Below are positions 5,974-46,914 of a stretch of DNA of 64,000 nt, one piece after another. Location of the stretch: the sequence record OP557969.1; one strand, given 5' to 3'. A model generated the notes under the pieces. The model was not told where the DNA came from. It ran no database searches and worked only from the letters and a program-made list of their open reading frames with translations. The DNA is from Escherichia phage ph0011. The position numbers and the translations under genes are program-made. Position 1 is the stretch's first letter. Each line of letters opens with the position of its first letter.

Positions 5974-5974
<1 letters not shown>

Positions 5975-6765
5975 TGCCTAGTAAAAGCAAAAGTCAAGCC
6001 AAATTCTTTGCTATCGCAGCACATGATCCAGAATTTGCAAAGAAAGCGGGAATTTCACAAAGTACTGCGAAAGAATGGAATACCGCAGATGAAAAGGAAG
6101 GAAATCTTAAAAAAAGTTCTAAACTTCCTAATAAGGTAAAAGAATCAAGTATGCGTGGTTTGGTAGATATAGTAAAAGATGCAGAACTTGCTGATGATAC
6201 AAAAGAAGAACCATGTGATATAATTGATGAATCTGATGATATTGAAAAGTTGGAAGAAATGCCACAACGATTTGATAGTTTTCAAGGTCAAGACCGAGAT
6301 GAGTTTGTCGATAAAACTGCCAAACTAACTGGTAAACATAACATGGTTAAGTTCGCAGAACATAAAGACTATGATGTGTATATTAATAAAAACGGTTCTG
6401 GATTTATCGCTTATGATAAGTCTGGTAAACAGCTTGCTGTCGTTAGTGGTCATTTATCTAATGATGCAGTTCTTGGTGTACAAAATGTATTTGAGATTGC
6501 AGCCACTGCATCTAAAACTGGCACTAAAGGTATCATCTATAACATCTTTATGGATATGGTTGCCCATGGCATTAAAGTGCTAAGCGATAGTTTACACACA
6601 GATGATGCAATTAAATTCTGGACGCGATTGATTGGCTCACATCAAGTTTATGTTGTTGGTGGTGGAGAAGTTCTTTCAAAGGCGAGTCCAGATAAGATTC
6701 ATAAGTACTGGAGTGATGATGAGTCAAGTCCAAGTGCTGAACTTCAACTTATGTTAGTGAAATAA
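5974..6765 (+). CDS. hypothetical acidic protein
   Basis: 263-aa ORF, start overlaps upstream stop (ATAATG); followed by terminator. Confidence 0.55.
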
Positions 6766-13080: not shown

Positions 13081-13558
13081 TGTGAAATGTAATCTTAATG
13101 CAGTTGTTTATGCAATCAACTGTGGTGCAGATATCCAGTACTTACAATTACAGGAAATCGATGAACCTGAAAGGTTAAAATTCAATGATAACTGTAAAAA
13201 ATTTGGTTTAGAGCAACGTATGCTGGATTATACCATTGAACATGATAAAAATCATGAACTTTGGCGTTATGATCCAGTATATGATAATATAAATCTACGT
13301 GACTTTTTTTTACAAAAGTGTACATCTGATGAAGCACGAACACGTGTTGAGTATGAGCTTGAATTATATGAATATTATAATATGACAAAACTATTAAGAT
13401 GTATGATCTGGCTCGTTGATTACATGGAAGAACATGAAATCTTTTGGGGTCTGGGGCGTGGAAGCTCTGTTGCATCATATTGCTTATACTTGATTGGACT
13501 ACATATGGTAGATTCATTGAAGTATGACCTTGATGTGAACGAATTTTTGAAATGGTAG
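13040..13558 (+). CDS. hypothetical protein
   Basis: 172-aa ORF; track start overlaps previous gene by 41 nt, true start probably downstream. Confidence 0.45.
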   Translation: MKVQGNRFISPNGDVKCNLNAVVYAINCGADIQYLQLQEIDEPERLKFNDNCKKFGLEQRMLDYTIEHDKNHELWRYDPVYDNINLRDFFLQKCTSDEARTRVEYELELYEYYNMTKLLRCMIWLVDYMEEHEIFWGLGRGSSVASYCLYLIGLHMVDSLKYDLDVNEFLKW

Positions 13559-13565
13559 ATAAACA

Positions 13566-13576
13566 TGTGATATAAT
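13566..13576 (+). promoter_or_regulatory. extended -10 promoter TGTGATATAAT inside an inverted repeat
   Basis: TGTGATATAATG followed by ...TTATATCACACA; 45 nt upstream of CDS 13623. Confidence 0.45.
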
Positions 13577-13622
13577 GTGTATTGTAGTTATTATATCACA
13601 CATAAAATAAAAGGATTTTGAT

Positions 13623-13967
13623 ATGTCTAAACATACAACTTATCGTGGTACAACAATTGACATGGATATGCTCAAGTACCAAAATCAACACCAGGTAGCA
13701 TTGGGTAATGCAAATCTAAATGCACGTGGTGATAAAATTGGCTCAGGTGGAACAATTATCAAAACTCGTGAAGAGTTACTTCAAGAAAAAGAACGTGAAA
13801 TGCAAATTCCTGATTTTATTCCTGAACATCAACTTCATAGTACTGAACATAGTACTGAAGAAGTATGGGATGATGAAAGCTTTGAAGTTATGCCCGAAGT
13901 AAAAGAAGCTGAGGTTTCTGAAGAAAAGAAAGCCCCACGTCGAGCAAGAACTAAAGAACAGGAGTGA
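13623..13967 (+). CDS. hypothetical protein
   Basis: 114-aa ORF downstream of TGTGATATAAT promoter; acidic C-terminus. Confidence 0.5.
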   Translation: MSKHTTYRGTTIDMDMLKYQNQHQVALGNANLNARGDKIGSGGTIIKTREELLQEKEREMQIPDFIPEHQLHSTEHSTEEVWDDESFEVMPEVKEAEVSEEKKAPRRARTKEQE

Positions 13968-35824: not shown

Positions 35825-35967
35825 TGGTGTATACTAACATTTTTACTGGTATTATGCGTAAGTTTGTTAATGGTATTGGATATGTATCCAATGACAACGG
35901 TAGTACATGGGTAAAAAATAATACGTCCGAATCTTTAGTGAAAAGTCTTCCGTATTATAAAGCTTGA
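35824..35967 (+). CDS. small hypothetical protein (47 aa)
   Basis: Own reading: ATG overlapping upstream stop (MVYTNIFTGIMRKF...). Confidence 0.3.
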   Translation: MVYTNIFTGIMRKFVNGIGYVSNDNGSTWVKNNTSESLVKSLPYYKA

Positions 35968-35992
35968 CACATGAAAATGGAGTATGTATAAT
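35964..35992 (+). promoter_or_regulatory. sigma-70-like promoter (TTGACA-17-TATAAT), -10 within inverted repeat
   Basis: CTTGACACATG...TGGAGTATGTATAATACTCCA; IR GGAGTAT/ATACTCC spans the -10. Confidence 0.5.
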
Positions 35993-37614: not shown

Positions 37615-37901
37615 AAATTTTAGAAGTTTTACTTGAAAAAGATGCATCTGGTACTCTTTATGTTGGTAATGATTTCAGTCCTGATCCAATTGATATGATA
37701 CAGCGTATTCAATCACTGACCCAATCAATTTCAGTTAAACAACCTTTCCTAAAAGAATTGGAAATTCATTGCGATAAAGACATGGAGCAGCATGATAATG
37801 TTATTTCTGATATCAAAAATCTGTTGACAAAGAATGGATATGTGGAGTATAATCCTCCTATCGTAATCGTTATCCCTGACTTCATGAGAGGAACATTGTA
37901 A
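37611..37901 (+). CDS. hypothetical protein
   Basis: 96-aa ORF, ATGA overlap. Confidence 0.5.
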   Translation: MKILEVLLEKDASGTLYVGNDFSPDPIDMIQRIQSLTQSISVKQPFLKELEIHCDKDMEQHDNVISDIKNLLTKNGYVEYNPPIVIVIPDFMRGTL

Positions 37902-38170: not shown

Positions 38171-38459
38171 ACATGAAGTATTAGTATTAGATAATAAATT
38201 CTATGTACCAAATGATGATAGTACTGAAACATATTATCTAATTAATAAAATTATGACTGAAACTAATACTTGTTGTCGTCAAATCCCAGGAAAATATGAG
38301 TTCAGTCAGTCTATTGGCTATTATCGTTATAATCCATTGGAATCATTTACAATTGACGTGTTGAAAATCATTGACATTCTTGTACAGAATGGGTATAATG
38401 AAAAACATGTAAATAACTCAGAGTTACCAGTTTCAAAAATCGTTATTTCTAATAATTAG
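38163..38459 (+). CDS. hypothetical protein
   Basis: Track ORF 38100-38459 trimmed to ATG 38163 (MNKHEVLVLDN) overlapping upstream stop. Confidence 0.45.
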   Translation: MNKHEVLVLDNKFYVPNDDSTETYYLINKIMTETNTCCRQIPGKYEFSQSIGYYRYNPLESFTIDVLKIIDILVQNGYNEKHVNNSELPVSKIVISNN

Positions 38460-38479
38460 AATTGGATAATAACAGATGA

Positions 38480-38490
38480 TGTGATATAAT
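38480..38490 (+). promoter_or_regulatory. extended -10 promoter TGTGATATAAT
   Basis: Same 11-mer as at 13566 and 43615; followed about 35 nt later by a terminator-like hairpin. Confidence 0.45.
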
Positions 38491-38524
38491 GTTTTTATCG
38501 GCAGATGTTAAAATGCAAACCATT

Positions 38525-38546
38525 CCTCAATGATGAGGGTTTTTTC
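38525..38546 (+). terminator. terminator-like hairpin after TGTGATATAAT promoter
   Basis: CCTCAATGATGAGGG + TTTTTTC. Confidence 0.5.
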
Positions 38547-38573
38547 ATTAAAAAGAAATAAAAGGGTATTAAA

Positions 38574-38783
38574 ATGGCTAAAGAAATTCACGCACAAGTA
38601 CTAGATATCACCGACTTCGACCGCACTGTGAACTACATTCAATTCCAGATTCATCAAGCTGAAGAAGCTCTTGCTGCATTCCATGGTACTGGTGCAAGGC
38701 CAATCCGTTTTGCTCACCTAGTTGCATGGAAGAAAAGTCTACAAGAAGAACTGTCTGAAATGCGTAAAGCAAATCGTAAGTAA
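38574..38783 (+). CDS. hypothetical protein
   Basis: 69-aa ORF with AAAGGG RBS, followed by terminator. Confidence 0.5.
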   Translation: MAKEIHAQVLDITDFDRTVNYIQFQIHQAEEALAAFHGTGARPIRFAHLVAWKKSLQEELSEMRKANRK

Positions 38784-38792
38784 TCTGTTTTC

Positions 38793-38820
38793 GCCCCATC
38801 AATTTTGGTGGGGCATTTTA
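38793..38820 (+). terminator. rho-independent terminator
   Basis: GCCCCATCAATTTTGGTGGGGC + ATTTTA. Confidence 0.6.
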
Positions 38821-38846
38821 ATCACATAAATCAAGAGGATTAACAC

Positions 38847-39642: not shown

Positions 39643-39732
39643 AATATTCAATAAGAGAATTAATGAATTATTAAATAGTTAGATATCAAAACACATACAT
39701 TCGTAGTTACGTCCAAAAAATCACTTTATGTT

Positions 39733-43045: not shown

Positions 43046-43052
43046 TTTTCAT

Positions 43053-43079
43053 TGACAACCTCAGTATATTTGCTATAAT
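43053..43079 (+). promoter_or_regulatory. sigma-70-like promoter (TTGACA-15-TATAAT)
   Basis: ATTGACAACCTCAGTATATTTGCTATAATC upstream of CDS 43088. Confidence 0.45.
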
Positions 43080-43087
43080 CACTTCAG

Positions 43088-43315
43088 ATGAATAAATCCA
43101 CGAGGTATCCAAAAATGACCAAAGCAGAACTTGTTGCATTATTGGAATCATACCCTGATGATGCATGTATTGAAGTTGTACATACTGCACGACATTTTGA
43201 CATTGAAGATGTAGTACGTTATAATGATAAAGGTGTACCAATAATGGAACTGTGTATTGGTGAAGTGAAAACTGTACCTGAATCGGAAAAACGTAAAAAA
43301 ATTAATCAGGAGTAA
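43088..43315 (+). CDS. hypothetical protein
   Basis: 75-aa ORF downstream of TTGACA/TATAAT promoter; start may be ~43115. Confidence 0.45.
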   Translation: MNKSTRYPKMTKAELVALLESYPDDACIEVVHTARHFDIEDVVRYNDKGVPIMELCIGEVKTVPESEKRKKINQE

Positions 43316-43606: not shown

Positions 43607-43722
<116 letters not shown>

Positions 43723-45044: not shown

Positions 45045-45078
<34 letters not shown>

Positions 45079-46678: not shown

Positions 46679-46700
46679 TTAAAAAATCAGTACTTTATTA

Positions 46701-46914
<214 letters not shown>

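Follow-up and report, generated by a model that had tools for sequence, protein, structure and literature searches.

A sigma-70-like promoter and a conserved, structured leader, a candidate cis-acting element, upstream of a 69-codon gene in Escherichia phage ph0011 and related jumbo phages

Does the short stretch of Escherichia phage ph0011 DNA that runs from a promoter-like element at 38480 to a hairpin and a run of Ts specify a small RNA, or is it the beginning of the mRNA of the next gene? The first-pass annotation of the window, the 64,000 nt of sequence record OP557969.1 analyzed here, had left both readings standing. In RaK2/121Q-type jumbo phages, most genes and nearly all regulatory RNA are uncharacterized. 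The ~2 kb around the locus are ~86% identical in nucleotide sequence to the Escherichia phages 121Q, PBECO4, G17, and phAPEC6, 350-kb jumbo myoviruses of the genus Asteriusvirus; no closer match was present in the phage collection we searched. With a G+C content of 33%, the window is ~87% coding; of its 115 long ORFs, 114 are on the + strand. The ortholog of the downstream gene in phage CBB (CBB_446) belongs to the presumed early region, where RpoD-like promoters are abundant (PMC5259590), and PA5oct, a distant relative, is transcribed by host RNA polymerase from promoters of the form TTGAC/TATAATA (PMC7318152); we found no promoter or transcript data in the phAPEC6 paper.

The promoter at 38480 and other copies of its −10 element

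The 11-mer TGTGATATAAT does occur on the + strand at 13566, 38480, and 43615, as annotated, but the window holds five exact copies on its two strands rather than three (6214+, 13566+, 13590−, 38480+, and 43615+). Chance would provide 0.17 ± 0.38 copies, and five or more were found in none of 100 shuffles; with one mismatch allowed there are 15 copies versus 6.6 expected. The 9-mer TGATATAAT has 12 copies on the + strand, 7 of which fall between genes even though 87% of the window is coding; the − strand has six, the sole intergenic one being the palindrome partner. Two copies of the promoter element are located 10 nt upstream of tRNA genes. Generic −35/−10 matches are at chance level (66 versus 69.9 expected).

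At the locus itself, the upstream ORF stops at 38459 and is followed by a −35-like hexamer, TGGATA (38463–38468, +; 4/6 match), a 16-nt spacer, and the extended −10 element TGTGA-TATAAT (38480–38490, +), that is, TRTGn joined to a TATAAT that matches at 6/6 positions. The orthologous −35 positions in relatives read TGGACA, GGGACA, or TTGACA. TGATATAATGT is unchanged across five aligned Asteriusvirus-type relatives, TGTGATATAAT is also found ahead of the ortholog in the lineages of SE_PL/Munch, Hallingskeid, and EJP2 as well as in several known from metagenomes, and one or the other of TGTGATATAAT and TGATATAAT lies 5′ of the orthologous gene in phages from several host genera. A TGn that abuts TATAAT, an above-chance frequency, an intergenic and + strand bias, tRNA-proximal copies, and conservation at orthologous sites all support the extended −10 promoter proposed in the first-pass annotation. 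Promoters that rely on the TGn contact typically pair an extended −10 with a weak −35; with its full TRTGn-TATAAT match and the weak TGGATA, the 38480 element appears to be an ordinary member of this class of sigma-70 promoters. Judged by sequence, 38463–38490 looks like a genuine early promoter of the host (sigma-70) type, its extended −10 being complete. The start of sigma-70 transcripts is placed ~7 nt downstream of the −10 by a position rule, which makes A38497 (+), 7 nt after the −10, the most likely first nucleotide.

The other copies are varied. The one at 43615–43625 (+) is intergenic, has GGGACA as its −35, and lies 10 nt 5′ of a called tRNA-Ser gene (43636), whereas the copy at 6214–6224 (+) is inside an ORF (5974–6765) and is probably not a promoter, or else an internal one. 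Two copies form a perfect inverted repeat with 11-bp arms and a 13-nt center (13566–13600), which bears out the earlier observation that the 13566 copy is embedded in such a repeat: it pairs over all 11 bp with 13590–13600. This repeat lies between a DNA-polymerase-like ORF (ending at 13558) and the next gene (ATG at 13623); its arms are conserved and its center variable in 121Q and EC.P1, and Yersinia phage Yen9-04 lacks the repeat. An operator overlapping the −10 is one conceivable role for it; another is to form a hairpin in the RNA of transcripts that read through.

Other promoter-like sites were seen as well. The five perfect 12/12 matches to TTGACA-N16-18-TATAAT in a 12-kb stretch are all + strand sites, and three fall within ORFs (35964–35992, 37824–37853, 38371–38399, 43052–43079, and 43197–43225). 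The 38371–38399 site falls in codons IDILVQNGYNE of the ORF just 5′ of the locus; G17 and JNE01 retain it, and RNA started from it would extend across the leader described below. In the tRNA cluster, an identical 30-nt promoter-like repeat, cTTGACTaaatagttcagtacTGATATAAT, is found at 45049–45078 and at 46700–46729. The latter copy ends 10 nt 5′ of the tRNA at 46740, which also has TGATATAAT 10 nt upstream; ARAGORN calls this gene (46740–46831) as a 92-nt tRNA-Ser with the unusual anticodon ACT, one of seven tRNAs between 43636 and 48038.

The leader and its gene in 31 relatives

From the predicted start at A38497 to the ATG at 38574, the leader measures 77 nt. The order of parts given in the first-pass annotation was correct: a hairpin (38524–38539), a T-run (TTTTTT, 38540–38545, then C), and the ribosome-binding site of the gene (SD, 38562–38566). 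The hairpin begins 27 nt, not ~35 nt, after A38497. The proposed ~50-nt unit agrees in length with the 49 nt from the start through the U tract, but it is probably the 5′ part of the leader rather than a gene of its own. Behind it comes an A/U-rich tract (38546–38573, +) with UUAAAA/AUAAAA repeats and the SD AAGGG, 7 nt before the ATG; its composition and minimum free energy (MFE) folds predict that it is single-stranded.

The gene (38574–38783, +) has 69 codons and belongs to phrog_15704, a PHROGs family of unknown function and the only family it matched there; Pfam yielded none. AlphaFold models the protein as a two-helix hairpin (pLDDT 74), for which a Foldseek search of the PDB returned only generic coiled-coil hairpins (E ≥ 0.67). 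Homologs, down to 42% identity, are present in 70 phage records, among them phages of Escherichia, Salmonella, Klebsiella, Erwinia, Yersinia, Serratia, Cronobacter, and Pectobacterium, and there are more in IMG/VR, JGI, ENA, and Logan contigs. The protein is real, because its ortholog in Klebsiella phage fENko-Kae01 was detected by LC-MS/MS (PMC11218385). In one metagenomic relative (L076, 601–867), the gene caller lengthened the ORF to an AUG within the 5′ element, for 88 instead of ~69 aa; since that leader AUG is in frame, this is likely a misannotation.

Just past the gene lies a strong intrinsic terminator (38793–38822, +), with a 9-bp stem that includes 6 GC pairs (−15.3 kcal/mol), followed by ATTTTAATCA. 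The gene has a terminator of its own in three lineages, and orthologous terminators are annotated behind it in G17 and Munch. Taken together, the sequence favors a single unit in which the promoter would drive an mRNA of ~325 nt that carries the structured 77-nt leader and the 69-codon gene and ends at this strong terminator.

We compared 31 distinct upstream regions of the ortholog, from phages of eight host genera and from metagenomes. All 31 follow a common plan: a 5′ element, a second hairpin (hairpin 2), and an A/U-rich tract with the ribosome-binding site; the distance from the conserved box of the 5′ element to the ATG is 73 to 96 nt. Aligned with G17, the window leader matches at 96.1% of positions and hairpin 2 at 100%, versus 81% for the next intergenic region and 72.9% for the third codon positions of the neighboring ORFs. 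In the jumbo-phage contigs of IMG/VR, the common-box 16-mer is present in exactly one copy per contig, and the window's version of the box, like its hairpin, is unique in the window; being single-copy in each genome, the element is gene specific.

The window sequence taken singly would not have revealed this. Its leader folds no better than shuffled versions (z = +0.43), and sites with a minimal hairpin and T-run number 9 versus 4.4 ± 2.1 expected in 12 kb; it is conservation and covariation in the relatives that argue for a real feature. A 14-pair structure is paired in 97.8% of cells, versus 78.6 ± 1.0% in shuffles (0 of 500 reached the observed value), and when the partners are slid only 16 to 53% of cells pair. 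These counts come from a structure-anchored alignment made by hand, with N as gap placeholder, because MAFFT and RNAalifold alone failed to align hairpin 2. The hand fitting of the hairpin 2 columns biases helix 3 toward the structure, so the independent support for it lies in its distance to the ATG and in the shuffle tests.

The 5′-terminal element is a candidate mini H-type pseudoknot of 21 nt (38496–38516, +), based on RNAalifold and covariation. In helix S1, (U)AUC (38496–38499) pairs with GAU(G) (38504–38507); in S2, the loop triplet GCA (38501–38503) pairs with UGC (38514–38516) across the A-rich linker UUAAAA (38508–38513). The common form among relatives is CAUC-G-ACG-GAUG-UAAAA-CGU, and the window form is (U)AUC-G-GCA-GAUG-UUAAAA-UGC. 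Loop 1 would have 1 nt, loop 2 0 or 1 nt, and the A-rich loop 3 5 or 6 nt. RNAalifold picked out the three S2 pairs on the unfitted MAFFT alignment. S2 exists in five versions: ACG/CGU, GCA/UGC (the window and Asteriusvirus-type phages), UCG/CGA (EJP2), ACA/UGU (Hallingskeid), and CCA/UGG (L073), with one mismatch in 90 cells over 31 sequences; two of its pairs are distributed as 20 AU, 7 GC, 2 CG, and 1 UA, and as 20 GC, 9 AU, and the mismatch. In S1, double changes convert CAUC/GAUG to CGAC/GUCG in Hallingskeid, and the covariation of this helix stems essentially from one lineage. Six substitutions in the element separate Hallingskeid from its close relative L075, and none of them breaks a pair of S1 or S2. 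Such covariation of the conserved 5′ nucleotides points to internal structure rather than to a free seed. The helices are only 3 to 4 bp, and a rough nearest-neighbor estimate makes the pseudoknot, taken alone, marginally stable; RaK2-type phages have a plain 5-bp hairpin, AUCAG-UAAAAAG-CUGAU, in its place. The box sequence is near-invariant (CAUCGACGGAUGUAAAACGU) across genera whose proteins share only 45 to 55% identity, which might point to a specific partner in addition to structure.

Promoters in front of the element vary among the relatives (TTGACA-17-TATAAT, GGGACA-17-TGTGATATAAT, and others) and are sigma-70-like in nearly all 31. In most, a good −10 hexamer ends 5 to 9 nt 5′ of the conserved AUC/box, a few rows being misparsed or ambiguous; upstream of the L064 element a good promoter was not seen. 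In EJP2, L075, L071, L073, and Hallingskeid, the 5′ element would begin 2 to 7 nt inside the transcript.

Hairpin 2, UCCUCA-AUGA-UGAGGG (38524–38539, +; −6.1 kcal/mol), occupies +28 to +43 of the predicted transcript and has a 5- to 6-bp stem with three GC pairs. It is present in the unconstrained MFE structure of all 31 leaders, its 3′ end 30 to 35 nt from the ATG, and a comparable hairpin appears in 14% of dinucleotide shuffles of the same segments. Its stems are diverse (UCCUCA/UGAGGG, GUCUC/GAGAC, GCGUUCAA/UUGAACGC, GGUACUUA/UAAGUACU, GCUCUC/GAGAGC, and a 14-bp A/U stem in GAP32/CBB), and all seven stem pairs show double changes in the hand-fitted alignment.

Some further features are confined to parts of the clade. 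A six-codon ORF, MQTIPQ* (AUG CAA ACC AUU CCU CAA UGA; 38514–38534), extends from the S2 strand to the hairpin 2 loop and is kept in the 121Q group and JNE01. In the Munch/SE_PL-like clade (L013, L014, and L015 at ~1160 to 1200, and L022, L025, L027, and L065), the SD, in the 3′ part of the leader, sits in a small hairpin loop, GUAAAA-(U/G)AAGG(G/A)-UUUUAC, to which a weak AAUA/UAUU version is the only counterpart in the window; the 5′ box contains GUAAAAC as well. Long-range pairing of that GUAAAAC with GUUUUAC in the post-SD spacer is perfect in the SE_PL clade and not elsewhere, and we rejected it as a general feature. Also set aside was pairing of CCAUU (38520–38524) with the start-codon region, which is confined to the window lineage.

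A small RNA, an operator, or a cis-acting leader

Our best reading of the locus, made from sequence comparison, is a cis-acting structured mRNA leader that serves in the control of stability or translation, possibly as a protein operator. The sigma-70 early promoter at 38463–38490 would fire, with transcription starting at A38497; the 21-nt 5′ element would then fold, the loop of its AUC/GAU hairpin pairing downstream to give the mini pseudoknot; hairpin 2 would form after it; and the 30 to 35 nt of A/U-rich tract with the SD would stay open up to the AUG. The structured part may shield the 5′ end against 5′-end-dependent decay, may fence off the open A/U-rich tract on which ribosomes load, and might be the binding site of a regulatory protein. 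We give this promoter-leader-gene model, with its conservation, covariation, and positional constancy, a probability of roughly 0.6. Its cis action on the RNA is suggested by the first structure, at or near the predicted 5′ end, by the constant distance between hairpin 2 and the start codon, which places the hairpin roughly where the footprint of a ribosome would end on the upstream side, and by the predicted openness of the A/U-rich tract.

Many enterobacterial sRNAs open with a conserved 5′ portion and close with a terminator hairpin and its U tail. The locus has this general shape, and the U6 tract that directly follows hairpin 2 (38540–38545, +) completes a minimal terminator pattern, as would be expected of an autonomous ~49-nt sRNA, or of an attenuator at which most transcripts stop at 38545 and read-through is regulated. 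Runs of 4 to 6 U stand at this point in the window, the 121Q group, Yen9-03, GAP32/CBB, SerBF, L064, and L076. Such runs are lineage specific, however: at least four U follow hairpin 2 in 10 of 31 relatives, and the other 21 keep the hairpin but read UUCUAUAAAAG, CUUUGAAAAAC, or similar after the stem, so termination cannot be the conserved function. The stem is also weak, at −6.1 kcal/mol versus −15.3 for the terminator at 38793 and −10.3 for that at 39732, and the ARNold annotation of G17 calls both neighboring orthologous terminators but not the leader hairpin. Given the scarcity of U-runs and the weak stem, termination would be at most partial and a lineage-specific extra. The leader contains no alternative (antiterminator) pairing with either hairpin arm that we could find, and no conserved leader peptide. 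Attenuation through an upstream ORF was considered and rejected: MQTIPQ* lacks an SD, is no longer in frame with its stop in A4, and is confined to the Asteriusvirus lineage, and the window does not have the AUG-UAA "start-stop" seen in other lineages. The 5′ nucleotides covary, the element never occurs elsewhere, and in all 31 relatives the hairpin keeps its distance to the ATG of the same gene, a constancy that ties hairpin 2 to that gene. Either version of this explanation therefore seems unlikely to us. The tiny transcript defined by a terminator, proposed earlier as the product of the locus, is not supported as its primary function. Of the two alternatives "small RNA or leader", the second is supported, since the stretch is conserved in 31 relatives as the 5′ UTR belonging to the 69-codon gene, and the stand-alone small RNA is not. 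As a lineage-specific overlay on the leader in this phage, hairpin 2 with its U6 tract could attenuate part of the transcription, both that from its own promoter and read-through from upstream; partial termination may then leave a 49-nt by-product.

If the leader acts in cis, it could do so as a translational operator, in which the pseudoknot, hairpin 2, or both bind the 69-aa product or another phage protein, which would then occlude the ribosome-binding tract in the way that gp32 acts on the mRNA of T4 gene 32. The conservation of the box exceeds what a generic protective hairpin would need, all the more so beside such divergent proteins, and the element is gene specific and single-copy, in a layout like that of the T4 gene 32 operator (PMC535899). 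Against this, the 69-aa product has no Pfam family and is predicted to be a generic two-helix hairpin (best Foldseek E = 0.67), UAAA-type repeats are expected anyway at 33% GC, and RaK2-type phages replace the pseudoknot by a simple hairpin; such occlusion strikes us as doubtful. Worded more broadly, with the mini pseudoknot, alone or together with hairpin 2, as a clade-wide RNA operator that is bound by a phage protein, possibly the 69-aa product, and controls translation or decay, the proposal is a tentative one that we would hold as a minority view; if true, it would be a new autoregulatory RNA-protein pair common to RaK2-, 121Q-, GAP32-, and Munch-like jumbo phages. The box could instead work as DNA, since it adjoins the predicted start in nearly all relatives and is palindromic (CATC N4 GATG): a 4+4 palindrome at +1 (CATCGACGGATG) might be the operator of a regulator or a promoter-escape sequence, with the RNA folds incidental. 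A DNA operator does not predict that S2, in five versions, pairs the loop with a nonpalindromic triplet 10 to 12 nt downstream, nor that hairpin 2 covaries and keeps a constant distance to the ATG rather than to the promoter, and we consider a DNA-level role quite improbable. Finally, a minimal hairpin with a T-run is expected ~4 times per 12 kb, and BLAST homology to some relatives begins exactly at the −10, as if the locus were a chance inverted repeat or a promoter/stem-loop recombination cassette of the PeSL kind. Conservation and covariation in 31 relatives exclude chance; the leader element is predicted to be transcribed and is gene specific and single-copy, unlike PeSLs (PMC2839356), and the homology break at the −10 reflects faster divergence of the end of the upstream ORF, which together leave this explanation hardly any weight.

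Comparison with known RNA elements

Rfam 15 gave no hit at E ≤ 10 over 38460–38575. Searches of the loci of 19 relatives matched no family, preQ1 included, and produced only two subthreshold hits to the S15 leader (L073, 544–651, and L076, 606–714; 24.5 and 20 bits versus a gathering threshold of 39.5), which span hairpin 2 to the ORF start and are probably due to chance. No paper containing the box sequence turned up in the literature searched. With no Rfam family, no literature match to the box, and a stem-loop that differs from those of PeSLs in position and in being single-copy, we class the leader as a structured cis-regulatory mRNA leader.

As such, it would be a compact, covariation-supported RNA element absent from Rfam and conserved from Escherichia phages to those of Erwinia, Yersinia, Serratia, Klebsiella, and Salmonella, and adding it to RNA family libraries could improve annotation. 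It appears to mark the 69-aa gene as one under unusually tight expression control and gives experiments something concrete to act on, namely the candidate 21-nt pseudoknot and the hairpin whose distance to the start codon stays constant. The locus also carries a caution for genome scans, in that a promoter, a hairpin, and a T-run in AT-rich phage DNA are insufficient for calling an sRNA.

Several known systems share features with the leader. Stabilizers of the E. coli ompA 5′ UTR type use a 5′-terminal stem-loop to block 5′-end-dependent attack by RNase E/RppH, and here, too, structure begins at or within a few nucleotides of the predicted 5′ end. Stabilizers of this type need no set sequence, whereas the leader is near-invariant across genera and has a pseudoknot-like fold. 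The preQ1-I riboswitch is built from a hairpin whose loop pairs with a 3-nt strand lying beyond an A-rich tail, which makes an H-type pseudoknot. The likeness is in architecture only: none of 20 leaders matched it in Rfam, and the hairpin loop of only 4 to 5 nt leaves no space for a ligand pocket. A CsrA site was also entertained, as the common form ACGGAUGU resembles the CsrA SELEX consensus; it was rejected on the loss of the GGA in the window lineage, Hallingskeid, and L071/L073.

The PeSL cassettes of T4-type phages resemble the locus in combining a strong early promoter with a stem-loop, between genes, in a small-ORF region of a large myovirus (PMC2839356, PMC4122927). The stem-loops of PeSLs are located in the promoter or beside it, 5′ of the start, and are repeated at many intergenic sites, where they terminate upstream transcription (PMC2839356); the stem-loop here is 27 nt inside the transcript, at +28 to +43, serves one gene, and, like the box, is single-copy in the window.

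The nearest parallel, as we would speculate, is the T4 gene 32 operator, in which a 5′ pseudoknot is followed by an unstructured UUAAA/UAAA-rich tract that contains the ribosome-binding site (PMC535899). The two differ in the gene, which here encodes a 69-aa protein of unknown function rather than a single-stranded DNA-binding protein (SSB), in the size of the pseudoknot, 21 nt with 4+3 bp versus ~28 nt, and in the extra hairpin that stands here between pseudoknot and A/U tract. They are alike as gene-specific elements of phage mRNA leaders: both have a 5′ pseudoknot, inferred in the present case, ~70 to 80 nt before the AUG, and from it a predicted-open, A/U-rich tract of UUAAA/UAAA type leads into the ribosome-binding site.
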